Source: Mariprofundaceae bacterium | GTDB taxonomy: Bacteria; Pseudomonadota; Zetaproteobacteria; Mariprofundales; Mariprofundaceae | NCBI GenBank assembly: GCA_030950825.1 | Contig: JAUZQT010000163.1 | Coordinates: 1-39,225 of the forward strand | DNA: 39,225 bases | Direction: 5' to 3' | Part shown: positions 151-39,224 of the stretch, in pieces | Numbering within the stretch: the first letter of the stretch is position 1 | Layout of the letters: the number at the start of each line of letters is the position of its first letter | The notes under the pieces: generated by a model | What the model saw: the letters and a program-made list of their open reading frames with translations, nothing else | Told to the model about the DNA's origin: nothing | The model's database searches: none | Made by a program: the position numbers and the translations under genes

Positions 151-185
151 AGGCATAAAGACGCGTTCTTTATGCCTTTTTCTTT
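151..185 (+). terminator. Rho-independent terminator of a gene lying upstream of the window
   Basis: Perfect 10-bp stem GGCATAAAGA/TCTTTATGCC (152-161 / 167-176), 5-nt loop, then a T-run. It overlaps the ORF-track ATG at 172, which argues for the later start at 208. Confidence 0.6.
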
Positions 186-207
186 GGGCGAGGTGATAGG
201 AGCTGAT

Positions 208-1005
208 ATGGAGTGGGATCTACTAATGCTTCTTTACGGCTTGCTTGTCGGTTTGTGCGCTGGGGCAGTTGCAGGCTGCATGGCTGGCTTAGCAGGTGTG
301 GGTGGCGGCTTGGTTTATGTGCCTGTTTTTTATTTGTTAATGCCAGGTTCGGATGCCAGCATGGCTCTAAGTGTATTTTCCAGTATGCTGGCAATTAGTA
401 TCACAACCGCTTTTTCAGCGCGCTCGCATTGGCGCCTAGGGCATGTAGACATTTATTTGTCATTGTATTTATTGCCAGCATTACTGCTAGGAGCAAGCTT
501 TGGTTTGTGGAGTGCGCTGCTTTTACCCGAGCTATGGGTTCTTTTGAGCTTAGCGGCTTTGAATGCGTGGGTGGCTTATGATTACGGGCGTGCTTTGCCA
601 GTAAAATCGCAGCATAAAGGTTTATTTGCATTGCTAGGATTGCCGATTGGCTATGTTTCGGGCGTATTGGGTATTGCTGGCGGAACAATGCTTGTGCCGC
701 TATTTAGGCGATCATTAAGTCTAAGAAATGCTGTGGGTACATCGGCAGTATGCAGTGTAATGATGGTGGGCATGGCAGTGTTACTGAATTTAATCTTTGA
801 GCCAGGCTGGGGCCTACTATTGCAGCAGCAATGGAATTTTATATTGGCAACATGTGTGGGTGTTTTGATAACCATGCCGACGGCAGCCCGAAAAACGGCC
901 AGCTGGCATGATACGTTGGATGAGCGTTATCTTCGTTTTGTTTTAAAAAGCATGTTTTCGTTGATTGCGATATTGTTTTGTTTTATGGCATGGGAAAACG
1001 GATGA
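208..1005 (+). CDS. TSUP family (TauE/SafE-like) anion exporter, polytopic membrane protein
   Basis: Hydrophobic throughout. Duplicated half-motifs GVGGGLVYVP and GIAGGTMLVP are typical of TauE/SafE. Start moved to ATG 208 (MEWDLL...), preceded by AGGAG. Confidence 0.75.
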   Translation: MEWDLLMLLYGLLVGLCAGAVAGCMAGLAGVGGGLVYVPVFYLLMPGSDASMALSVFSSMLAISITTAFSARSHWRLGHVDIYLSLYLLPALLLGASFGLWSALLLPELWVLLSLAALNAWVAYDYGRALPVKSQHKGLFALLGLPIGYVSGVLGIAGGTMLVPLFRRSLSLRNAVGTSAVCSVMMVGMAVLLNLIFEPGWGLLLQQQWNFILATCVGVLITMPTAARKTASWHDTLDERYLRFVLKSMFSLIAILFCFMAWENG

Positions 1006-7228: not shown

Positions 7229-8275
7229 ATCAGGCTTCGGCATTGATGTTTTTAATGATAATCAAAACTCTATAGTCTCATTTAACTGGAAGCTGGCTCA
7301 GTAATTGATCCAGCAACTTTCTGAGCTGATCATCCTGTAGGGATAGCCTGCGAATGCGACGACTGCCGCCGCTGATCGTGGCTAGATCGCGTTGAAATTT
7401 CTCGGCTACTTTGGTTAGCGTGGCCGCCCCTGTTTCCGTGCAGAGCCAAGCGATGACATTTCGCGCCTCCGACGGCTTGTGGGCTCTGCTTTTGTGCTCA
7501 AGCTCCGATGGTTCCAGCTCGTAATGTTCGGTTACCACGCGCACAATATCATCCAGCGCAGGCGGTTTACTGCGCTCTGTTTTTGCTTTGGCGTATGCCA
7601 TTTCCATGAAATCATCGTCACCGAGCAGGCGTGCATCCTTGTTGCGCTGGTGAAAGATCTTGGCGTGATCCTCTTCCATACCAGCCTGAACAAATTCGTG
7701 ATAGCACTCCCTCGCCCGATCAACACTGTCAGCCAACTGCCCCAGCAGGTAGTCTGTTGTCAGCCAAGGAATATGCACGTCACCAAGGTAGGCATTATGA
7801 CCCGACCAATCATAGTCGGAGGCATCTTTCACCATCTCCGCACGTACAGGGTTGAGGTGAATATATCGAATTAAAGCAAGGAAATAGGTGTTTTGATCAA
7901 TCAGGATCGCTTTGAAGCGCCCCTGGAAGAGATGACCGAGTCGTTTTTGCCGAAAGTTGAACCAGCGCGTATAGCGGAACGACAGATTTTGCATAATGTT
8001 GGAGAGCGGCACATCAGACACCTGAATCGCCAGATGCACATGATTGCTCATCAGGCAAAACGCATGCACTCGAAAGCCAAAACGATAGCTCCCCTCCTGC
8101 AACAAAAGGAGAAAACGGCAGCGATCTTCATCCGAAGCAAACACCTCCATACCGCCGTTGCCGCGCAGCATCACATGATAAATCCCGCCATGAACATGAA
8201 TTCGTTGTTGTCTTGCCATGGGCGAACAATAGCACTATCGCAAAAAGAATCAATTCCGAAGCCTGACCCCATTTC
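7229..8275 (-). mobile_element. RAYT-type unit: Y1 transposase gene bracketed by inverted REP-like sequences
   Basis: ATCAGGCTTCGGCATTGAT (7229-7248) and AATCAATTCCGAAGCCTGACCCC (8249-8275) are inverted copies flanking the transposase ORF. Confidence 0.6.
7278..8219 (-). CDS. REP-associated tyrosine transposase-like protein (IS200/IS605 Y1 HUH domain + DnaA domain IV-like HTH)
   Basis: GGIYHVMLRGN, HUH motif SNHVHLAI and catalytic Tyr context LIRYIHLNPVRA. C-terminal ARNVIAWLC...TLTKVAEKF..DLATIS resembles the DnaA C-terminal HTH. Confidence 0.8.
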   Translation of the reverse strand: MARQQRIHVHGGIYHVMLRGNGGMEVFASDEDRCRFLLLLQEGSYRFGFRVHAFCLMSNHVHLAIQVSDVPLSNIMQNLSFRYTRWFNFRQKRLGHLFQGRFKAILIDQNTYFLALIRYIHLNPVRAEMVKDASDYDWSGHNAYLGDVHIPWLTTDYLLGQLADSVDRARECYHEFVQAGMEEDHAKIFHQRNKDARLLGDDDFMEMAYAKAKTERSKPPALDDIVRVVTEHYELEPSELEHKSRAHKPSEARNVIAWLCTETGAATLTKVAEKFQRDLATISGGSRRIRRLSLQDDQLRKLLDQLLSQLPVK

Positions 8276-8379: not shown

Positions 8380-9666
8380 TTAAAAGGCTTGTCCCGTGCC
8401 CAAATGTACGCGCCAGCGATGCAGGGCAGTGCTATAAGCAACATCGGCGCGTAAGGTTCCATTCATCAACCAGCGAAAAGTCCAGCGAATACCTGTGCCG
8501 GCACCAGCAACGACAGAGCGATCCAGTGCTCTGCGCCCCTGATTATTCACATGCCCAACATCCACAAAAGCAAGCCATTGCACATTGCTATCCAGCTTTA
8601 TTTGCATACGGCTTTCCAGTGAGCCATAAATGTACGCACTGCCGTGTAAATCTCCAGGGTAATAACCTCGAATTCCCCCGCCACTACCGAGATCAAACAA
8701 GCCATCGCGCAATAAATCACCCGTTGCCCAGCCTGCATTCACACGCATATTGATGGTATCTTGTTGTTTTAATGGCATGTAGCTGCGCCATGATGCACTT
8801 TGCCGAATAATATTAACGGTTGAGCCCAATAAGCTGTTCGCTAGTTCTGCATGATAATTGAATGCAGAGCCTGTGATCCAAGTTATATTGTCATTCACAA
8901 AGCGATAGTTGATACCTAGATTAATAGCATTGCGTTGATAATTCTGAATATTTGATTGCGCGCTGCCTGCCTCCAATGTGAATGTTTTAAGGCTATGATT
9001 CAATCCTACGCGAGCATCCCAACCCTCACCAGGAACGGCATCAAAAGCATAGGATACACCCAGAGACCAATCTTGACTGTTTTGTCGGTATGAGCTGCTC
9101 AAGATGCCATTTTCAAAGGCATCGAAAATACTGTCGCCACGATTTATAGACGCATCCATACTATATTTTGAATCAGCAAGCCGCCGCCATATATAGGATG
9201 CTTGGTGTGACCTTCCTTGATTACTGCTGAAGTTTTTGCCAGTGTCTAGGCTGCTTGAAAAACGCATGAAGTGATTCAATCCCCATAAATTATAATCACT
9301 TAAAGCAATACCTGCACGGGATGCCCCACCATCTTTTCGGGTGAGCTCTGGCAGCAACCAAATGGACCAGCGGTCACGCACAATAATTTGAACATGCCCC
9401 TGACGATTCGGTGGCAGCACAGTAGCTTCACTGAACACACCCAAATTTTTCAAACGTCGTTCGCTTATCTTGGCATAAGAAGGCTGCCACTTATCTCCTT
9501 CTGAAAATGCAAGCTCTCGCAATACAAGGCGCGGATGGCTGTGTTTTAAACCAGAGATGGTAATTTTTTGTATGATGTTCGCTTCAACGGTATAAGCACA
9601 AACAGGCAAACAAAGGGAATACAGAAGAAATGACATAAAGACACTTCTTCGTAGGATGTTACGCAT
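8380..9666 (-). CDS. Omp85-superfamily outer membrane protein with a single POTRA domain
   Basis: Signal peptide MRNILRRSVFMSFLLYSLCLPVCA. POTRA-like ITISGLKHSHPRLVLRELAFSEGDKW. Alternating beta-strand pattern and C-terminal ...HLGTGQAF. Start moved from TTG 9684 to ATG 9666. Confidence 0.7.
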   Translation of the reverse strand: MRNILRRSVFMSFLLYSLCLPVCAYTVEANIIQKITISGLKHSHPRLVLRELAFSEGDKWQPSYAKISERRLKNLGVFSEATVLPPNRQGHVQIIVRDRWSIWLLPELTRKDGGASRAGIALSDYNLWGLNHFMRFSSSLDTGKNFSSNQGRSHQASYIWRRLADSKYSMDASINRGDSIFDAFENGILSSSYRQNSQDWSLGVSYAFDAVPGEGWDARVGLNHSLKTFTLEAGSAQSNIQNYQRNAINLGINYRFVNDNITWITGSAFNYHAELANSLLGSTVNIIRQSASWRSYMPLKQQDTINMRVNAGWATGDLLRDGLFDLGSGGGIRGYYPGDLHGSAYIYGSLESRMQIKLDSNVQWLAFVDVGHVNNQGRRALDRSVVAGAGTGIRWTFRWLMNGTLRADVAYSTALHRWRVHLGTGQAF

Positions 9667-9775
9667 TGATGAAACGCCCCTCAAATGGAATTAGCCAATG
9701 ATTCAGGTTCACAAGATGAAGCCTTCTCACCCCATAATACGAAATATTAACAGGGGCGGAACATAAAAATGCGGG

Positions 9776-10129
9776 CTAGGAAGGCATTGCCTCATCGGAT
9801 AGAATACTCCAAATAACTTTCAAAACATGATCGGAGACAACTTCAGTTTGCTTATTTTCTGCTTTATCAAGCTCTTCGCGTAATAAAACTTGAATGTCGC
9901 GATCACCCGTACAGTTAAAAATAAACCCCACATCTTCAGAGAAGTCAATCACATCAGCCATGCCAACGCAGGCAATGGCATGGTTTTGCGCTATTATTTT
10001 ACCATGGGTATTTTCAGGCTCAACAACACACGCAATATGCAGCCCCAAATTAGAGCGTTGAATCAATTGCTCTAAAAAAAAAGTGCCAACCTTACCAAGT
10101 CCAATTATAACAATACTTGTGCTTTCCAT
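9776..10129 (-). CDS. Stand-alone Rossmann domain protein (TrkA-N/RCK-like), 117 aa
   Basis: IVIIGLGKVG dinucleotide-binding loop at the N-terminus and ...FNCTGDRDIQVLL. Length matches a lone TrkA-N domain. Product assignment is tentative. Confidence 0.5.
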   Translation of the reverse strand: MESTSIVIIGLGKVGTFFLEQLIQRSNLGLHIACVVEPENTHGKIIAQNHAIACVGMADVIDFSEDVGFIFNCTGDRDIQVLLREELDKAENKQTEVVSDHVLKVIWSILSDEAMPS

Positions 10130-10161
10130 TTTTATACTCCTTTAGGAATGGGAATTAAATA

Positions 10162-30558: not shown

Positions 30559-31839
30559 TCAAACAATCATTCCAGCGCCAACTGTATTATTGGTAAAGCC
30601 ATCAATAATAATAAAGCTGCCTGTCACCCGATTGTCTGCATACGGATCACAACAGAGGGGTTGTTGTAACTTAAATGTGACTTGTCCAATTTCGTTCATC
30701 GCCAAAGCAGTCGCTTCTTCCCGTTCAAGTGAGTGAATGTCGCGTTTAAAGTTCACTTCAGACACCAGTGCCTTCACCTGCGTGGTGGTATGTTTGATGA
30801 TGTATTTCTTGCGATTTTCCAATGCCTCATCACCAATCCAGCATACATTGGCAGTCAATTGTTTCTCGCCTGTTGTCTGCTCGCCAGCATGAACCAACAT
30901 ATCACCGCGCGAAATATCAATGTTATCATTCAACGTAATCGTGATACTTTGAGGTGAAAAGGCCTCTTCCAAATTACCATCAAAGGCAACAATTTCTTTC
31001 ACTGTTGAAGTTTTTCCAGAAGGCATCACCACCAATGAATCTCCCACCTTCACGGTTCCTGATGCAATGGTACCCATAAAGCCGCGATAATCAGGCAAAT
31101 CAGCTGTTTGTGGGCGATTGACCAATTGCACAGGCATACGGAATGGCTTTTCATCCAGATCATCCAAAACGGACATGGATTCCAAGGTTTCAAGCAAGGT
31201 GTCACCCTTATACCAGTCCATCTTATCACCGCGAATGGTCACCATATCACCCGTTAGTGCGGACATGGGTGTGCAAATCAAGTCTTTAATACCTTGCTTG
31301 GCGCAATATTCCTGCATTTCTTTACGAATTTTTTCAAACGCTGCTTGATCATAGTCAACCAAATCCATTTTATTGATCGCAACGATCAAATGAGGAATAC
31401 CCAACAAACCCAAAATGTGGGTATGACGTTTGGTTTGTGGCAAGACACCATGACGTGCATCAATCAAAATAATTGCTGCATTGGCAGTCGATGAGCCTGT
31501 CACCATATTACGTGTGTATTGCTCATGGCCTGGGCAATCCGCCATAATAAATTTACGTTTGGGAGTGGCAAAATAGCGGTATGCCACATCGATGGTGATG
31601 CCCTGCTCGCGCTCAGCAGCGAGGCCATCGGTCAACATCGCCAAATCAATTTCAGCAGCAGAAGACACATGCGTTGTACCTTTTTTCTTGCGCACAGCCA
31701 TCAATTGATCTTCAAATGCGCCTTTGGTATCAACAAGCAAACGGCCAATCAAAGTAGACTTACCATCATCCACACTGCCCACCGTAACCAAACGCAATAA
31801 TTCGATTTCTTTTGTTAGTTCAAAGTTAAATTCAGTCAT
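30559..31839 (-). CDS. cysN: Sulfate adenylyltransferase subunit 1 (GTPase), without a fused APS kinase domain
   Basis: GSVDDGKSTLIGRLL, DCPGHEQY and NKMD motifs. Ends after EF-Tu-like domain III. Start moved to ATG 31839 (MTEFNF...). Confidence 0.93.
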   Translation of the reverse strand: MTEFNFELTKEIELLRLVTVGSVDDGKSTLIGRLLVDTKGAFEDQLMAVRKKKGTTHVSSAAEIDLAMLTDGLAAEREQGITIDVAYRYFATPKRKFIMADCPGHEQYTRNMVTGSSTANAAIILIDARHGVLPQTKRHTHILGLLGIPHLIVAINKMDLVDYDQAAFEKIRKEMQEYCAKQGIKDLICTPMSALTGDMVTIRGDKMDWYKGDTLLETLESMSVLDDLDEKPFRMPVQLVNRPQTADLPDYRGFMGTIASGTVKVGDSLVVMPSGKTSTVKEIVAFDGNLEEAFSPQSITITLNDNIDISRGDMLVHAGEQTTGEKQLTANVCWIGDEALENRKKYIIKHTTTQVKALVSEVNFKRDIHSLEREEATALAMNEIGQVTFKLQQPLCCDPYADNRVTGSFIIIDGFTNNTVGAGMIV

Positions 31840-31858
31840 TTGCAAACCCCATTTGCAC

Positions 31859-31884
31859 CGCTGAGGACGCTGAGGACGCTGAGA
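31859..31884. repeat. Tandem 9-mer (CGCTGAGGA x 2.9) in the cysD-cysN spacer
   Basis: CGCTGAGGACGCTGAGGACGCTGAGA read directly from the sequence. Confidence 0.9.
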
Positions 31885-31925
31885 AAACTCTCTGCGACCT
31901 TTGCGAACTCTGTGGTTAAAAAATT

Positions 31926-32840
31926 TTAGAAATACCCTTCTTTTTTCTTATCTTCCATTGAGTTTGAGCCGTGATCAATGATTCGTGTTTCACGCTCGGA
32001 ACGACGCGCTGCGGCGGCTTCAATCACAATTTCATCCATATTCGTTGCATCCGAGCGCACCGCACCCGTACACGGACTACAGCCCAAGGTGCGGAAACGC
32101 GACATAATCATCTTCGGCGCTTCACCCTCAAGCAATTGATCCTTATTTTCTTCGTAATAAGGAATCAACATCTCACCACGCTCAATCATCGGACGTTCTT
32201 TGGCAAAATAAAGCGGCACAATGGGAATATTTTCATCGCGGATATACGACCAAATATCCATTTCTGTCCAATTTGAAATCGGGAATACACGTACCGATTC
32301 ACCATCATGAATACGACCATTATAAATGTTCCACAATTCAGGGCGTTGATTCTTTGGATCCCACTGACCAAATTCATCACGCATAGAAAACACACGTTCC
32401 TTGGCACGTGATTTTTCTTCATCACGTCGCGCCCCACCAAACGCCGCATCATAACCACCTTCTTCCAATGACTTCAGCAAAGCACCTGTTTTCAATGCAC
32501 CACAACAACGCGCCACACCAAACTCTTTTGGATTCATACCCTTGGCAATGGCATCTTCATTACGTTTCACAATCAAATCTGCACCAATCTCTTCGCAAAA
32601 CGCATCACGAAATTCATACATTTCTTTGAATTTAAACCCTGTATCCACATGCAGCAAAGAAAAAGGCAAGGGTGCAGGATAAAACGCCTTGCGCGCAAGA
32701 TGAACAAGCACGCTCGAATCCTTACCAACTGAATACAGCATCACAGGATTGCGAAATTCGGCCACAACTTCACGGATAATGTGAATGGATTCAGCCTCCA
32801 GTGCCTTCAGCTGTGTTAATTTATGTTTTGACATTTTCAT
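31926..32840 (-). CDS. cysD: Sulfate adenylyltransferase subunit 2
   Basis: PAPS-reductase-fold ATP pyrophosphatase: [39 protein letters not shown]. Confidence 0.95.
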
Positions 32841-32846
32841 AGACTC

Positions 32847-33569
32847 CTAAATTCCATCTCCAGATTCTCCTTCACCTTTCGGGGCTTTTAGCGAACTCAC
32901 ATGCAGACCGCACTCTGCTAAAGTGTCTTTATTTTCCCACCACCAACGACCAGCACGCGGGTCTTCACCCATGCTAATTGCCCGTGTGCACGGCTCACAA
33001 CCAATGGACACATAGAACGCATCATGCAATTTATTGTATGGCAAATCATGTTCACGAATATATGCCCATACATCTTTTTCTGTCCAATTGCGCATTGGAT
33101 TATATTTTTTCAAGCCATACACAGGGTCATCTTCCACAGGCGCAATATCACCACGGTTTTTCGCTTGATCTTTACGCCGCCCCGTTATCCACGCTTCCAT
33201 GCCATGTAATGCTTTTTTCAAAGGCTGAACCTTGCGCACTTGACAACATAGCTTTCGATTTTCCACGGATTTCTGGAATAAATTCACACCATACTCGTGT
33301 ACCATGGCCTGCACCGCACCCGCATCTGGAAAAAGAATATGCAACATATTGCCATAACGCTCACGTAGCGCATCCATTAAATCATACGTTGGCTGTGGTA
33401 AACGACCTGTATCCAATGTCACAATGCGAATGTCCAAATTATAACGACAAATCAGGTCAATCAATACAATACCTTGCGAGCCCAAGCTGCATGAATACAC
33501 CAACTTATCGCCATGCTTATCCTTGGCTTCTTGTAGTAAGGTCACTGCCTCATCCATCAAAAGCTTCAT
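32847..33569 (-). CDS. cysH: Adenylyl-sulfate (APS) reductase, thioredoxin-dependent, Fe-S type
   Basis: SCSLGSQG P-loop-like motif and catalytic ECGLH. The Cys-Cys...CXXC set (KLCCQVRK, GCEPCT) distinguishes APS reductases from PAPS reductases. Start placed at ATG 33569, which overlaps the upstream stop (ATGA). Confidence 0.88.
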   Translation of the reverse strand: MKLLMDEAVTLLQEAKDKHGDKLVYSCSLGSQGIVLIDLICRYNLDIRIVTLDTGRLPQPTYDLMDALRERYGNMLHILFPDAGAVQAMVHEYGVNLFQKSVENRKLCCQVRKVQPLKKALHGMEAWITGRRKDQAKNRGDIAPVEDDPVYGLKKYNPMRNWTEKDVWAYIREHDLPYNKLHDAFYVSIGCEPCTRAISMGEDPRAGRWWWENKDTLAECGLHVSSLKAPKGEGESGDGI

Positions 33570-36064
33570 TGAACCTCCAGTAATGATAATCCAACCACTG
33601 GCCACCAGTATGTAGAGACCAACATAAACAACACCAACGATGATACAGACAAAATCGCACCATATCGCAGCATACTACCGCCATTTAGGTAGCCACTGGC
33701 ATAAATCATAGCATTCGGTGGTGTACTCATCGGCAGCATAAAAGCAAAACCAGCCACAATGCCAATGGTTAAAGCCACGCCCACAGGATCAAGCCCTGCC
33801 GCCATACCCACAGGCATGGCAATAGGCAATACAATCGCCACTGCCGCCGCATTGCTCACACCCTCTGTAAAAAGCAGCGTCATCAGCACCAAAAAACCAA
33901 CCAAAGCCAAGCCCACTATATCCCCAGGAATCAAGCTATCCGCCAACCACACAGCCGCACCTGTATCAGAGAGCGCTTTGCCAATAGCAATCGCACCGCC
34001 ATACATCAACACCACACTCCATGACACATGCTGCTCAATCGCTTTCCACTCCACCAGTCGCAGCACAAACATCAAAACCACCGCAATCAAGGAGATACTG
34101 GCCAGCGTATTCGCATGCCCTGCCAGCATCCATGCCAATACCGTGGATAAAAGCAGGATCGCCATCAACCAGCCTTTGACACCCAATCCGCCCAATTCCA
34201 AACGACGCTGGGCAAAGCGGTTTCGTACCTGATCCAAATCCAATGACACCGATGCAGCCATGCGCATCAATAAGTACAGGGCAACCGATAATACGCCAAT
34301 CACCAATGGCAATGCTGCCAAAGTCCACTCTAAAAATGAAAAGGATTGACCCGTAAGCTCACTACTCAAGGCCAAAGCCAAAGGCCCACGTGCTCCACCA
34401 AGCAAGGTAGTCACACCGCCAATAATGGCTCCCCATGCCAGTGCGAAAAAAATTGCTTGGGCATAAATATGACCTTTTTTCAAATCCAAACTACGCACAA
34501 TTTCCCAGGCTATCGGCAAAAACAATGCCGCCACGGCGTGCTCTGGCATCACACAGGCCATCAAGGCCGGCAACAATAACATCGCGCATAAAAGTTGCTT
34601 GGGAGTATTGGCTACGCGATCCAACATCGCCAAGGCTACACGCTCAGATAAACCGCTTTGCATCACCCCTGCAATCAACATAAAGGCACCAAGAATAAAA
34701 AACACCGCTGGATTGCCAAATAGTGCAAACACATCGGCGGCTGGCATCACCTCCAAAAGCGGTAATAATGCCATACCCAATAGGGATGTAATGGCCAGCG
34801 GCAACAGCTGCGTCACCCACAACACCAAACACAATAAAAAAACCAGCAAGGCATGCCAGCCCTCCGAGCTTAAACCTTCAGGCGCGTTGGATAGAACCCC
34901 CACGAAAAAAGCCAAAACAACCACAAACATGGCGGCAAACGGTGCGGCTTCCGCAGCCAACACACGGTGAAAAGGTCGACGATCAGATTTTTCGCCCTTA
35001 CCAACCCGCAAATGCCTGCGAAAGCTATCTTGCCAACCAGCCCAGCGCCTGCCAAACGATGAAACCACCCAGCGCTCGGATAAAGCAGGCTGCTCACCAT
35101 CCAAAACACGGCTTTCCATCGGTGTTAATACACGCCCCATATCACGCAAACGATGGGTAGGCAAACCTGATGTTTCCAATAACTGATACTGCAATAATAG
35201 GGCTTTCTCAACATCATCCAACGATGGTATTTTTACATCTTGTAAAGGTGTTCCAGGCAAAGGTCGAAAGGGAATCAATAATGGTACAATGCCTTTATCC
35301 ACCAAACTTCTCAAGCCATCTAGGGTTGATTTCAATGGCTCCAGCCCTACAATCAAATGGCTTACCACTGCTCCTGAGCGAAAAACTTTACGCGCATGCT
35401 CTAATGCCTGCCAAATAGCATCCTGACCACCCTGTTGCTGTTTACCTGGGCAAATCTCTGTAAAACACTCCCCATCAAAAACTTCCAAGTTACAAATAAA
35501 AATATCCAAACCCGCTGCATACAAGGCATCAATCACACTGACATCTTTCGGTGCAACCGTTTCTAGGGCAATCTGACGGTGCCCCAAATGCCTGCGGAGC
35601 AAGGCAATCACAGGAATTAAATCCGATAATCCAGCATGATCATTGGCACTGAAACCATTGTACAAGTAAACGGTATCAATTTCACGCTCATTCAAAGCAG
35701 CCAGAACAACTTCAACCAATTCCAAGGCATCACGCAATGGCGGTTTCTCTTCATTCAACATCGAATCAAACTGGCAATAGCCACATGCTTGATTTTCTTG
35801 CGCAAAAAAACCACAGCCCATAAACGGCTGCAAAATCAACAAACGGTCATGCAGAGAAGCAAAACTTCCCATTCGGGAGCCCTTACGTGTCAACTTACTA
35901 TAAAAAGTAGGGGCTTCAACCAGCTCAACTGTTTCCGATTCCCCACCACAGGACATGACAGCCATGCCATTATCCCCTACCTTTAAAGAAAAGCCACTGG
36001 CTTCTGTATACGGCTGACCAACGGGTACCGAACAAAAGTGCCCACTGGGCAGGCGTAAATCCAA
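33566..36064 (-). CDS. Fusion protein: N-terminal Fe-S/radical-SAM-like soluble domain (~350 aa) + C-terminal DASS/SLC13-type anion (putative sulfate) permease
   Basis: One uninterrupted ORF. N-terminal part has CGFFAQENQACGYC (C-X9-C-X2-C) and beta/alpha-like periodicity. C-terminal part has >10 TM helices, GNPAVFFILGAFMLIAG and MSTPPNAMIYASG DASS hairpin motifs. Start uncertain: TTG 36064 without RBS, versus ATG 35965 preceded by GGTAGGGGA. Confidence 0.7.
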   Translation of the reverse strand: MDLRLPSGHFCSVPVGQPYTEASGFSLKVGDNGMAVMSCGGESETVELVEAPTFYSKLTRKGSRMGSFASLHDRLLILQPFMGCGFFAQENQACGYCQFDSMLNEEKPPLRDALELVEVVLAALNEREIDTVYLYNGFSANDHAGLSDLIPVIALLRRHLGHRQIALETVAPKDVSVIDALYAAGLDIFICNLEVFDGECFTEICPGKQQQGGQDAIWQALEHARKVFRSGAVVSHLIVGLEPLKSTLDGLRSLVDKGIVPLLIPFRPLPGTPLQDVKIPSLDDVEKALLLQYQLLETSGLPTHRLRDMGRVLTPMESRVLDGEQPALSERWVVSSFGRRWAGWQDSFRRHLRVGKGEKSDRRPFHRVLAAEAAPFAAMFVVVLAFFVGVLSNAPEGLSSEGWHALLVFLLCLVLWVTQLLPLAITSLLGMALLPLLEVMPAADVFALFGNPAVFFILGAFMLIAGVMQSGLSERVALAMLDRVANTPKQLLCAMLLLPALMACVMPEHAVAALFLPIAWEIVRSLDLKKGHIYAQAIFFALAWGAIIGGVTTLLGGARGPLALALSSELTGQSFSFLEWTLAALPLVIGVLSVALYLLMRMAASVSLDLDQVRNRFAQRRLELGGLGVKGWLMAILLLSTVLAWMLAGHANTLASISLIAVVLMFVLRLVEWKAIEQHVSWSVVLMYGGAIAIGKALSDTGAAVWLADSLIPGDIVGLALVGFLVLMTLLFTEGVSNAAAVAIVLPIAMPVGMAAGLDPVGVALTIGIVAGFAFMLPMSTPPNAMIYASGYLNGGSMLRYGAILSVSSLVLFMLVSTYWWPVVGLSLLEVQ

Positions 36065-36070
36065 TGTTGA

Positions 36071-36199
36071 TTAGGCACTATTGGATTGCGCCAACCAACG
36101 CGAGCTATTGGGCAGGCCATCGGGCAGAGCTAGACCACGGCTCACCAAAGAAAGCTTGGTGCGCCCTGGATTGGAAAAAGGGTGAAGGTCGTTAGTCAT
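36071..36199 (-). other. 42-codon ORF in frame with the downstream fusion gene, separated from it by one TAA
   Basis: ATG 2 nt after the sir stop encodes MTNDLHPFSNPGRTKLSLVSRGLALPDGLPNSSRWLAQSNSA*. The TAA at 36073-36071 is followed in frame, two codons later, by the TTG of the 832-aa ORF. No RBS seen. Confidence 0.25.
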
Positions 36200-36201
36200 G
36201 G

Positions 36202-38544
36202 TTAGATTTGAGAGATCTTCTCCACAACAATGCGCCACTGGCGATCAGAAAGCTGCTCTTTGATATGCACCTTCTGGCCTTGCTCTTCCAAAGATAGCGG
36301 TACATTTTCAATCGGTGCGCCATCATCAAGAATCACTTCCAGTTGCGAACCAATAGCCATTGAAGATAATTTGATTTTCGTTTTTACAAAATTCATCGGA
36401 CAAGCCACACCCGATAAATCCAAAGTCAACACATCCGAAGAGGATTCGCTTTCAGCAACGACTTCCTCAGCCGCTTCACCAGCATCAGGCACAGCAGCAA
36501 AACGTTTATCGGCCAAGACAAGCCATGCGCCTTGCACGTCTTTTAGCTTGGTCACACCCGCCGCAGGCTCTGCCAAATCAATACTCATCAATGCACTTTG
36601 CACAGCATTAAAGCATTGCGTCACTTCGACATCACTACCCGCATGGCTCATCAACAAAGCAAATACTTCAGAGTCATCTTCAGGCGCTTCACCGTAAGCC
36701 ACTAAGAATGCACGTGCTGTAGAAATTGCAGAACGACGCAAGGCTGTTTGCGCTTCTGCCCAGAACATCGCATCGGTATGGGCGCGTGCAATCAACAACT
36801 CATATTCCGCTTCTGAAATCAAGGCATCCGACATCGAAAGTACTGCGCCTGCACATTCGCCTTTTTTATTGCCTTTGGTATTAAAGGCTTCGTTCTCACT
36901 CCAATCGTAAATCAGACCTTCCACTTCGCCCGCATCGGCTTTAAATGGTGCCAAAATATCAGACAGTCCTTCTTTACCCAAACGCTCAGCCCAGTCATGC
37001 ATTGTTTCAGTTTCGTTACGCCCATCTTTATAAGCGTTCAATACCGCAATACCTGCTTCTGGTGCATATTTGGCTGGCACCCACTCCGAAGCAAATGCAA
37101 ACGGTTGCCCCGCCACACCTGAGCCTCCAACATGCAATTGATAATGCGGCACTGGCTGACCTGCGACCTTCTTAGCCATACCATGAAAACCCAAGTCCGC
37201 AATATGATGACGACCACAAGAATGCTGGCAGCCCGATGCCTTCACCGTGATACCTGCCAAGGTTGGATCCTGTTTCAAATCAACCATGAGCGGTTGCAGA
37301 GCTTGTGCCAAACCGCGACTGGAAGTAATGCCCAAACGGCAGGTTTCAGTGCCTGGACAAGCCGTAATATCCGAAATGCCACGCGCAAATGAAGTTGGAA
37401 TACCCGCATTACCAAGCATTTCCACCACATCATCCACTCTTTCAGCATGCACACCGACAATAACCAGACCTTGCTCGGTGGTCACACGCAGCTCTTTGCT
37501 CGCTCCCAAACGTGCTGCTTCAGCTACTGCACGACACTGCAATGGTGTTAAATCACCACGGAACACATTCAATAAAATAGATTTCTTGCCATCATGCTGA
37601 TCCACCACACCACTTTCATTAAATGGCATCGCATCCGTCGGCGTACGCCAATTCGCGTCGCTAAAACCAGCATCATCCTTATGCGTGGATTCAATCACCG
37701 CACGTTGTTTTTTGTACTCTTCAATAAAGCCTTCCGTGCCAAGTTTTTGCATCACATATTTCATACGCGCACGGGCACGACGTTTGCGATCAGAGTACTT
37801 GAAGTGAATGCGCATCAATGCCTCGCCCACCAATAGTATCTCGGATTCTTCAATGAATTCTTCCAATAAAATCGCTTGTACAGGTTGTGAAGACAAGCCG
37901 CCCGCAGCCCAAACCTTAAAGCCAGCCTTGCCATCTTTATGCGTGGCAATAAAACCAATATCGTGCATACCGCCCAAACCGCAATCAGTATCACAGCCAG
38001 AAAATGTCACTTTAAATTTGCGTGGAAACTGCTGACCAAGCGGGTGACGCAAAAAATATTCCGCGAATTTACGTGCATGAATGCTCACATCGGCATGTTC
38101 AGCAGGGCAACGGCCTGCCAAAAAGCACGTCGTAACATTGCGCACGGTATTACCGCAGGCTTCACGCGTGGTCAGGCCGATCCCATCCAATTTACGCAAG
38201 AATGGAACCACATCATCCAGAGATACAAAGTTCACCTGAATATCCTGACGCGTAGTAATATGCACCACCTTCTCAGGTGGTTCCTTTAATGTGCCATCCG
38301 TTGGCAGGCAACCACCATAAGACTCAGCACAATCACCCAACACTTCAAGCTGTTCAGGTGTCAAGTTTCCGCCTGGCAACTTGGCACGAATCATCTGCAC
38401 GCCTTCCTGACGTTGGCCATAAACACCCATTTGCAGACGAAATGGTGTAAAGCGTTCCTCAGCCATGGTTCCAGCTTTAAAGGCTTTGTAACCAGCTTCA
38501 AATTCATCAACATCAGCCGTGTGTGCAAAATCAAATGTCGTCAT
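36202..38544 (-). CDS. sir: Ferredoxin-type assimilatory sulfite reductase (NirA/Sir hemoprotein) with C-terminal helical domain and TusA-like domain
   Basis: Siroheme-[4Fe-4S] motif TACPGTETCRLG...SGCQHSCGRHH and pseudo-repeat EACGNTVRN...SGCDTDCG. The last ~75 aa, LDLSGVACPMNFVKTKIKL...LEVILDD..., match the TusA/SirA fold signature. Confidence 0.85.
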   Translation of the reverse strand: MTTFDFAHTADVDEFEAGYKAFKAGTMAEERFTPFRLQMGVYGQRQEGVQMIRAKLPGGNLTPEQLEVLGDCAESYGGCLPTDGTLKEPPEKVVHITTRQDIQVNFVSLDDVVPFLRKLDGIGLTTREACGNTVRNVTTCFLAGRCPAEHADVSIHARKFAEYFLRHPLGQQFPRKFKVTFSGCDTDCGLGGMHDIGFIATHKDGKAGFKVWAAGGLSSQPVQAILLEEFIEESEILLVGEALMRIHFKYSDRKRRARARMKYVMQKLGTEGFIEEYKKQRAVIESTHKDDAGFSDANWRTPTDAMPFNESGVVDQHDGKKSILLNVFRGDLTPLQCRAVAEAARLGASKELRVTTEQGLVIVGVHAERVDDVVEMLGNAGIPTSFARGISDITACPGTETCRLGITSSRGLAQALQPLMVDLKQDPTLAGITVKASGCQHSCGRHHIADLGFHGMAKKVAGQPVPHYQLHVGGSGVAGQPFAFASEWVPAKYAPEAGIAVLNAYKDGRNETETMHDWAERLGKEGLSDILAPFKADAGEVEGLIYDWSENEAFNTKGNKKGECAGAVLSMSDALISEAEYELLIARAHTDAMFWAEAQTALRRSAISTARAFLVAYGEAPEDDSEVFALLMSHAGSDVEVTQCFNAVQSALMSIDLAEPAAGVTKLKDVQGAWLVLADKRFAAVPDAGEAAEEVVAESESSSDVLTLDLSGVACPMNFVKTKIKLSSMAIGSQLEVILDDGAPIENVPLSLEEQGQKVHIKEQLSDRQWRIVVEKISQI

Positions 38545-38690: not shown

Positions 38691-39224
38691 TTATTCGCCG
38701 AATTTTAGTTCGCAAGCTTGTTCGTATGTCACCAAGTCTGTAATCGTCGGATTATCACCACACAACGGACAGCCAGGGTCTTTACGCAACTTCAATTTTT
38801 TCCATTCCATGCGCAAGGCATCAAATACCATTAATTTTCCTGACAAGGAATCGCCAATAGCCAACAGTTCTTTAACCGCTTCCACCGCTTGAATCGTTCC
38901 GACAGCACCTGCCAATGCCCCCAAAATACCAGCTTCCGAACATGATGGAACCAGACCTGCTGGTGGTGGCTCAGGATACAAACAACGATAACAAGGCCCA
39001 TCTTTATGCACATGCGGTTTGTAGGTTGCGACTTGCCCTTCAAAGCGGAACATCGCACCAGAAATCAACGGCTTCTTCTCAAAATAACACGCATCATTCA
39101 CCAAAAAACGAGTTGGGAAGTTATCACAGCCATCGATAATCAAATCATATTCACGGATAATGTCGCGAATATTGTCTTCAGTAACAAAATAGTTATACGT
39201 ATTCACTTTCACATCAGGGTTCAA
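38691..39224 (-). CDS. ThiF/MoeB-family adenylyltransferase (E1-like), C-terminal part; N-terminus lies outside the window
   Basis: DGCDNFPTRFLVNDAC, CYRCLYPEPPP, SCSEAGILG and GCPLCG are typical of MoeB/ThiF. No rhodanese domain at the C-terminus. Confidence 0.85.
   Translation of the reverse strand: MNPDVKVNTYNYFVTEDNIRDIIREYDLIIDGCDNFPTRFLVNDACYFEKKPLISGAMFRFEGQVATYKPHVHKDGPCYRCLYPEPPPAGLVPSCSEAGILGALAGAVGTIQAVEAVKELLAIGDSLSGKLMVFDALRMEWKKLKLRKDPGCPLCGDNPTITDLVTYEQACELKFGE

Follow-up and report, generated by a model that had tools for sequence, protein, structure and literature searches.

A radical SAM-type domain joined to a DASS anion permease in a sulfate-assimilation operon of Mariprofundaceae: the fused form of a conserved two-gene module

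What is a radical S-adenosylmethionine (SAM) domain doing on an anion permease, in the middle of an operon for sulfate assimilation? The question is raised by one gene in the stretch of DNA analysed here (the window: 39,225 nucleotides of contig JAUZQT010000163.1, assembly GCA_030950825.1, from a Mariprofundaceae bacterium), which lies between sir and cysH and in which a radical-SAM-type domain is followed by a permease of the DASS/SLC13 family. A preliminary description, made from the letters of the window, had proposed that the two domains are covalently joined, and profile matches, a structural model, Foldseek comparison and conserved synteny all agree with this. The radical-SAM protein and the DASS permease form a conserved two-gene module in sulfur-assimilation clusters, and the two genes are fused in one lineage, the Zetaproteobacteria. 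Both parts are of known kinds; the conserved pairing and its fusion are new.

By motif and predicted fold the N-terminal half is a member of the radical SAM superfamily, and by score a member of the variant_rSAM family. The open reading frame (ORF) of the window matched the NCBIfam model NF045502 (variant_rSAM) with 180.7 bits against a cut-off of 125 over residues 20-288, as did an intact fused relative (P0003) with 182.3 bits, and Pfam PF04055 (Radical_SAM) was found at residues 91-241 (32.8 bits, gathering cut-off 29.5, E 1e-7). An AlphaFold model of a complete stand-alone zetaproteobacterial homologue (P0126, 67% identical to the N-terminal domain of the window protein), built with a 24-sequence alignment, had a mean pLDDT of 87.7 and a pTM of 0.88. 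Its best Foldseek matches in the PDB were all radical SAM enzymes at probability 1.00, with human lipoyl synthase first (LIAS, 8trw_A, E 9.5e-8, TM 0.64 on target), followed by HydE, LipA of Mycobacterium tuberculosis and BioB, and with RlmN, PylB, ThiH, HydG and MiaB also matched. A sequence-profile search of the PDB gave weak matches, the best to ThiH (E 4e-4), with LipA at about 0.09. The relationship that the preliminary description had suggested for this half was found both by profile and by structure.

That suggestion was drawn from a cysteine triad with an unusual C-X9-C-X2-C spacing (CGFFAQENQACGYC), and of 172 relatives of suitable length, fused or stand-alone, 168 have this spacing, while CX8CX2C stands in its place in 79 of the 80 loci from outside Zetaproteobacteria that are described below. 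An exhaustive HMMER search with the N-terminal domain against 1.84 billion representative proteins (50% identity level, E<=1e-3) returned 1141 relatives, mostly stand-alone proteins of 360-420 amino acids; among the best 145 of them, 91 carry CX8CX2C and 19 carry CX9CX2C. CX8CX2C is the family-wide motif, and CX9CX2C belongs to the zetaproteobacterial clade. The conserved DGG, (Y/C)NLE and IVGLEP stretches line up in sequence alignment with the SAM-contacting regions of ThiH and LipA (conservation was read from a 24-sequence alignment, A1), and motifs and model together suggest that the domain binds a [4Fe-4S] cluster and SAM. A second cysteine group, also pointed out before, holds in part: its CNLE and CPG cysteines are invariant within Zetaproteobacteria, but the middle one (GEC) is not conserved, and outside this class the CPG cysteine alone is common, the CNLE cysteine being usually Tyr. 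Beyond the triad, no auxiliary-cluster cysteine motif conserved across the clade was found in A1 or in the comparison within Zetaproteobacteria.

The likeness to the LipA/BioB/HydE group extends from the structural matches to the type of motif (NxE after beta-4, GxxE after beta-5), but sequence identity is 14-19%, and the clade of the window protein differs in a longer loop between the first two cysteines, in the lack of conserved auxiliary-cluster cysteines, in an extra N-terminal beta-rich subdomain of ~110 amino acids and in a C-terminal helical tail. A sulfur donor of the LipA/BioB type was rejected, as the auxiliary-cluster cysteines are not conserved and the CNLE and CPG cysteines are confined to Zetaproteobacteria and, being two, are too few. 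The MSMEG_0568/Nit1C equivalog TIGR04043 was likewise rejected (90.3 bits, cut-off 303.7): proteins of that family are found in nitrilase, GNAT and ATP-grasp contexts without a permease or sulfate-assimilation genes, whereas the context here is sulfate assimilation and not nitrilase. No member of the variant rSAM and MSMEG_0568 proteins has a demonstrated reaction. The variant cysteine motif itself is already catalogued, without function, in NF045502, and megaclusters with the CX8CX2C and CX9CX2C spacings are listed in RadicalSAM.org with no function assigned (PMC9477430). Other members of the variant rSAM family are fused to ATP-grasp or GNAT domains.

The C-terminal half is, as had been described, a DASS/SLC13 permease. 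The PF00939 (Na_sulph_symp) match is almost complete (E 1.7e-56, 192.6 bits against 27, model positions 6-470 of 472), and TIGR00785, the DASS family sodium-coupled anion symporters, scored 250.5 bits against a cut-off of 198.6. This is the permease family of the bacterial DASS transporters (TC 2.A.47) such as VcINDY, whose N-terminus is cytoplasmic, as an N-terminal soluble fusion needs. What distinguishes the permeases of this clade is an IDxRP(L/I)W motif at the N-terminus, and for no characterised DASS member is a radical SAM protein reported as partner, or an Fe-S domain at the N-terminus. The literature searched agrees with the earlier statement that no transporter of this architecture has been characterised; no paper was found in which radical SAM proteins are connected with carriers of the DASS/SLC13 family or with these sulfur-assimilation clusters. 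The fusion junction lies between two conserved motifs, RRHLRV at the end of the radical-SAM part and DRRPFHRVL at the start of the permease, which are six residues apart in the window protein. Outside Zetaproteobacteria the radical-SAM protein ends in RRxLRV in 78 of 80 loci, and its DASS partner carries (V/I)D(T/R)RP(L/I)W ahead of the first transmembrane helix, in the strict pattern in 61 of 69 and one residue off in several others. Modelled at full length with AlphaFold, the intact relative P0003 has both of its domains folded (pLDDT 83.6).

Before its function is considered, it should be asked whether the gene is intact and the fusion real. The gene had been described as a continuous ORF of 832 codons between sir and cysH; this ORF is real, but it is not the complete gene, being shortened by an in-frame stop. 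Full-length relatives in the protein database have 871-896 amino acids, most commonly 877, and an in-frame ATG is present at 36199, 2 nt past the sir stop. Translation from this ATG gives MTNDLHPFSNPGRTKLSLVSRGLALPDGLPNSSRWLAQSNSA, a stop, and then STLDLRLPSGH, where the relatives read ...SNSAESTLD.... A codon-by-codon comparison with the closest relative (88% protein identity, GCA_002401635.1) showed no internal stop in the gene other than the TAA at codon 43; within its first 45 codons, 18 differences are synonymous and three nonsynonymous, the stop among the three, and over the whole gene 332 codons differ synonymously and 103 nonsynonymously. Because synonymous differences exceed nonsynonymous ones, purifying selection appears to have acted on the 42 codons upstream of the stop until very recent times. 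An NPGxxKLxLxxxG motif within them is kept across the whole clade in A1, and no Shine-Dalgarno-like sequence was found ahead of the TTG at 36064. The synonymous excess upstream, the conserved upstream motif and the missing Shine-Dalgarno-like sequence rule out this TTG as the true start. The TAA may most simply be read as a sequencing or assembly error or as a very recent nonsense mutation.

The same stop could be taken as a sign that the fusion is an artefact or a dead gene, that is, two genes joined through an error (of assembly, or a frameshift) or a pseudogene made by the TAA at codon 43. Besides the stop itself, this would fit the fact that the copy comes from a single metagenomic contig and is the one member of its protein cluster, and that split versions occur in other Zetaproteobacteria. 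However, the fused frame is found in 119 independent protein clusters with isolate genomes among their sources, the codon differences given above are predominantly synonymous with no further stops, and even the severed codons still show purifying selection, so that we regard this explanation as very improbable. A merger of two genes by error is ruled out by the independent fused proteins; the fusion is real, and at most the window copy is very recently damaged.

A full-length protein search returned 119 proteins of at least 860 amino acids with both domains, all of them from Zetaproteobacteria, including Mariprofundus ferrooxydans, M. ferrinatatus, M. micogutta and Ghiorsea bivora. Their database names are "DASS family sodium-coupled anion symporter" or similar only. 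In M. ferrooxydans PV-1 and in the closest relative the gene order is ThrC-like PALP, ThiS, NIL, CysM-like PALP, ThiF, Sir-TusA, radical-SAM-DASS, CysH, CysD and CysN. A search with the N-terminal domain found in addition about 50 stand-alone radical-SAM proteins of 400-425 amino acids in Zetaproteobacteria, 56-68% identical, and on such contigs a separate DASS gene of ~473 amino acids directly follows the radical-SAM gene in the same context from sir to cysH, the two genes being joined by TGATG or ATGA overlaps. In the split form the first protein ends in ...RRGLRVQQSDESRDL and a stop, and the second begins with MAVFIDQSPLHVLL..., while the fused proteins read ...RRHLRVGKGEKSDRRPFHRVL... across the junction; from these sequences, the fusion seems to have arisen simply because the first of two coupled genes lost its stop codon. 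Within one protein, the order radical-SAM then DASS occurs in a single 50%-identity cluster of the representative library, the zetaproteobacterial one. Thus, as to two of the possibilities that the preliminary description had named against itself, separate genes are found in other lineages but the fused reading frame is real here, and the family is indeed a common one but has no assigned function. The database check for fused and split versions beside sir and cysH that it had proposed gave both. As a side observation, in split-type clusters of Zetaproteobacteria (L001, 11400..12117) cysH and cysD are separated by additional DsrE-like and TusA genes, which are absent from the window and from two fused-type loci (L088, the closest relative, and L089).

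Outside Zetaproteobacteria the pairing is found as two genes. A scan of one genome per GTDB species, with an alignment narrower than A1 as query (A2), returned 80 loci, titled in their records "Deltaproteobacteria", Desulfuromonadales, Thermodesulfobacteriota, Candidatus Binatia, Myxococcota and others, in which neighbours were identified by tblastn with reference proteins under a coverage filter. A DASS gene lies directly downstream of the radical-SAM gene on the same strand in 68 of the 80 loci, and in at least 69 when a truncated DASS below the filter (L079) is counted; several of the loci without it merely end soon past the radical-SAM gene. The other neighbours are ThiF (63/80), a CysM-like PALP (56/80), ThiS (52/80), NIL (37/80), a ThrC-like PALP (34/80), JAB (31/80), CysH (29/80) and TusA (21/80). 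One locus annotated in full (L045) contains, in order, ThrC-like PALP, small Sir (NIR_SIR plus ferredoxin insert), TusA, ThiS, NIL, CysM-like PALP, JAB, ThiF, the radical-SAM protein, DASS, a universal stress protein (Usp), CysH and ATP sulfurylase; the Usp gene (9632..10147) is placed between the DASS gene and cysH. Relatives of 31-35% identity have CysM-like PALP, JAB and ThiF upstream and DASS downstream. Even at 26% identity, P0191 (L004 8001..10711, GCA_038231435.1) has ThiS upstream and DASS downstream with a 4-nt overlap, and this protein is without all three cluster cysteines, the pairing with DASS being kept nonetheless; P0191 may represent a form of the partner that naturally does without the cluster. 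Since the two are separate neighbouring genes in other lineages, the functional link between them is strengthened.

The features of the window are collected in Table 1. As previously noted, the TGA of the fusion gene overlaps the cysH ATG. The Sir protein has two NIR_SIR domains and a TusA domain at residues 707-776, and the Sir-TusA fusion is found also in other Zetaproteobacteria (L001, L003, L089); the "delta" clusters have a small Sir and a separate TusA gene in its place. Elsewhere in the window, an ORF at 7278..8219 (-) joins an IS200-like Y1 transposase domain to a DnaA C-terminal helix-turn-helix domain.

Table 1. Positions of the fusion gene, its parts and its neighbours in the window (residue ranges and the triad cysteines are numbered as in the 832-codon ORF).
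Feature	Position	Strand	Remarks
Fusion gene, full reading frame	33566..36199	-	878 codons including stops; one interruption, at codon 43; frame collinear with 877-residue relatives
832-codon ORF, mechanical call	33566..36064	-	between sir and cysH; its 5' TTG is an internal Leu codon in relatives
42 N-terminal codons severed by the stop	36074..36199	-	hold family-conserved NPGxxKLxLxxxG; K28, L31 and G35 conserved in A1
In-frame TAA, codon 43	36071..36073	-	GAA (Glu) in closest relative; codon-by-codon comparison
Variant radical-SAM domain, residues 1 to about 355	35000..36064	-	NF045502, PF04055, model of relative P0126
CX9CX2C cluster motif (C84/C94/C97), residues 84-97	35774..35815	-	sequence and conservation
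IVGLEP, counterpart of the GxIxGxxE SAM-adenine motif of BioB/LipA-type radical SAM enzymes	35336..35353	-	aligns with LipA 'mlGlGE'; G invariant and E nearly so in A1
RRHLRV, basic C-terminal tail of the radical-SAM partner, residues 349-354	35003..35020	-	R409, R410, L412, R413 and V414 invariant or nearly so in A1
DRRPFHRVL, N-terminal motif of radical-SAM-associated DASS permeases, residues 361-369	34958..34984	-	just before first transmembrane helix; conserved
DASS/SLC13 permease domain, residues 378-825	33590..34933	-	PF00939, TIGR00785
ATGA, fusion-gene TGA overlapping cysH ATG	33566..33569	-	read in sequence
ThiF/MoeB-type E1 gene, cut by window end	38691..39224	-	belongs to ThiS/ThiF/PALP sulfur-carrier block, 5' of sir in relatives
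sir, sulfite reductase hemoprotein with C-terminal TusA domain	36202..38544	-	upstream of fusion gene
cysH, APS/PAPS reductase	32847..33569	-	downstream of fusion gene; profile matches
cysD and cysN, sulfate adenylyltransferase subunits	30559..32840	-	profile matches

What, then, does the permease carry? It is likely that the DASS half imports sulfate, because it is the sole transporter in the clusters, because Sat or CysDN together with CysH fit sulfate only, and because bacterial DASS sulfate transporters are known; its gene is placed between sir and cysH-cysDN in the window and adjoins cysH-sat in other phyla. A DASS sulfate transporter of Rhodobacter capsulatus is cited in PMC5840216, which indicates that a member of the family can serve assimilatory sulfate uptake. 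The preliminary description had called the permease the only plausible sulfate importer in the window, which is nearly right, although a TSUP membrane protein gene at 172..1005 (+), 33 kb from the fusion, is conceivable too (PF01925 TauE/SafE, E 7e-30). Members of the TauE/SafE family are candidate sulfite or sulfate carriers. The substrate of the DASS half is a candidate one, its specificity being taken from gene context.

An alternative is that the permease carries not sulfate but a different anion (thiosulfate, sulfite, an organosulfonate or a dicarboxylate, for instance), and that the radical-SAM half chemically processes this import at the membrane; radical cleavage of a C-S or S-S bond, to name one possibility, would supply Sir and the carrier proteins with sulfite or sulfide. 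The DASS family has a wide range of substrates, with a specificity that is unreadable from sequence (PMC5840216), which leaves room for this, and the radical SAM fold is intact in the model. Fusions of enzymes with transporters, moreover, often mark vectorial metabolism. On the other side, the clusters carry Sat or CysDN and CysH, which are required for sulfate alone, and no alternative sulfate importer was seen beside these genes in the clusters examined. Nor do we know of a radical SAM enzyme that acts on such anions. This alternative seems rather unlikely.

If sulfate is what enters, the next question is whether the radical-SAM protein has a step of its own to catalyse. In the complete clusters, Sat, CysH and Sir are candidates for the conversion of sulfate to sulfide, and ThiS, ThiF, CysM and JAB for that of sulfide to cysteine, while sulfide is probably converted to homocysteine by the ThrC-like enzyme; every chemical step has a candidate gene without the radical-SAM protein (for example in L045). 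The neighbours ThiS, ThiF, CysM-like PALP, JAB and ThrC-like PALP with NIL are those of the CysO/CysM/Mec/MoeZ and MetM/MetO pathways, and by this likeness the NIL protein is a putative MetO. These pathways as described include neither a radical SAM protein nor a DASS permease; the MetM/MetO homocysteine pathway is given in the GapMind 2026 preprint, with reference to Hasebe 2024. The gene that is the tightest and most frequent neighbour of the radical-SAM gene is the permease gene.

We tentatively favour, at somewhat less than even chances, the reading that the radical-SAM protein is a stoichiometric partner of the permease, through which the uptake of sulfate responds to the SAM, Fe-S or redox state of the cell. 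It is favoured because the pathway steps are already assigned, because the permease is the tightest neighbour, because the junction motifs are conserved and because the cysteine-less relative still pairs with DASS. Under this proposal the radical-SAM half would sit on the cytoplasmic face, beside the conserved N-terminal IDxRP motif of the permease, and would hold the [4Fe-4S] cluster and SAM without catalysing any step of the pathway. Sulfate uptake would then be throttled when SAM, the end product of sulfur assimilation, is plentiful, or on loss of the cluster. Control of sulfate uptake by SAM is not foreign to bacteria: in Firmicutes, genes for the uptake of sulfate are governed by SAM riboswitches. 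Close to the locus itself, neither a riboswitch nor any other RNA element was detected in Rfam and tRNA scans. For a cytoplasmic protein that docks on a carrier of the ion-transporter superfamily and alters its working there is ArsA with ArsB, and the chaperone HemW shows the radical-SAM fold in a role other than SAM-radical catalysis. Both are functional analogies only: ArsA has no sequence relationship to the window protein, HemW belongs to a HemN-like clade with the canonical CX3CX2C, and neither has a link to DASS or sulfate. In its broader form the proposal would make the radical-SAM protein an obligate DASS subunit, and the pair a new class of Fe-S/SAM-dependent secondary transporters reaching from Zetaproteobacteria to Binatia and Myxococcota, with uptake gated by the state of SAM or of the cluster or coupled to radical chemistry at the cytoplasmic face, and this too we put forward as a possibility with a little under an even chance of being right.

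Several observations weigh against a partner role in transport. To our knowledge no radical SAM protein is a transporter regulator, and neighbouring genes can fuse without direct interaction. The full-length model of P0003 gave no confident docking of the two domains (pTM 0.55, with a low-confidence linker). The cluster cysteines and the SAM-type motifs are kept in about 99% of the members, which fits a working enzyme equally well, and the nearest folds are those of sulfur-inserting enzymes (LipA, BioB) and of HydE. Some loci have another gene in the place of the permease: in two from Binatia (L082 and L087) Sat (ATP sulfurylase) follows the radical-SAM gene with no adjacent DASS, in two from Myxococcota (L049 and L069) an AAA ATPase follows it, again with no adjacent DASS and with a VWA (CoxE-like) protein next in L049, and in a third from Myxococcota (L067) a VWA protein and not DASS lies downstream. 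Pairs of AAA and VWA proteins are often tied to metal-cofactor insertion. Finally, a fusion of a JAB desampylase domain with the radical-SAM domain ties the family to carrier-protein chemistry rather than transport. In this protein, P0197 (575 amino acids, from the representative library), the JAB/desampylase domain precedes a variant rSAM domain that belongs to the clade of the window protein.

The main rival reading is that the radical-SAM half is a working enzyme of the thiocarboxylate (ThiS/CysO-type) pathway of sulfur assimilation. Its target might be a carrier protein, an intermediate bound to the carrier, or a cofactor, and it would be fused to the permease only through neighbourhood and translational coupling, with membrane tethering that is tolerated or gives modest channelling. 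The cluster motif is present in all but one of the loci outside Zetaproteobacteria and in nearly all zetaproteobacterial proteins, and the DGG, NLE and GLE motifs are conserved. The structural matches are to enzymes (LipA, HydE, BioB, ThiH, MiaB), with ThiH as the top sequence match in the PDB; elsewhere the wider family is enzymatic, since its members are joined to ATP-grasp and GNAT enzymes; and the P0197 fusion, together with the place beside Sat without an adjacent DASS in some Binatia, points in the same direction. However, the complete clusters leave no obvious chemical step without a candidate gene, and the auxiliary-cluster cysteines expected of a sulfur donor of the LipA/BioB type are not conserved. 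The closest companion of the gene is moreover a permease and not ThiS, ThiF or JAB, and P0191 is still paired with DASS without its cluster cysteines. We give an enzyme of this pathway a chance of about one in three, and a catalytic role is nearly as likely as control of uptake.

The association is surprising for both families, and its mechanism is an inference. Radical SAM enzymes and DASS carriers are each well studied, and no report was found of both working together. A module that is kept adjacent or fused across several phyla, inside clusters leading from sulfate to cysteine and homocysteine, points to a missing piece of assimilatory sulfur metabolism in the lineages concerned, which could be a SAM- or Fe-S-based control of sulfate uptake or a radical step in carrier-protein sulfur assimilation. 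The stand-alone proteins of ~400 amino acids, together with the cultured strains of Mariprofundus and Ghiorsea, make the pairing testable. It would also give a first functional handle on one clade of the large and uncharacterised CX8-9CX2C variant radical SAM family, with its 1141 representatives at 50% identity. If the radical-SAM protein is indeed an obligate subunit of the permease, it would be the first protein of the radical-SAM fold with its primary role at a membrane carrier.

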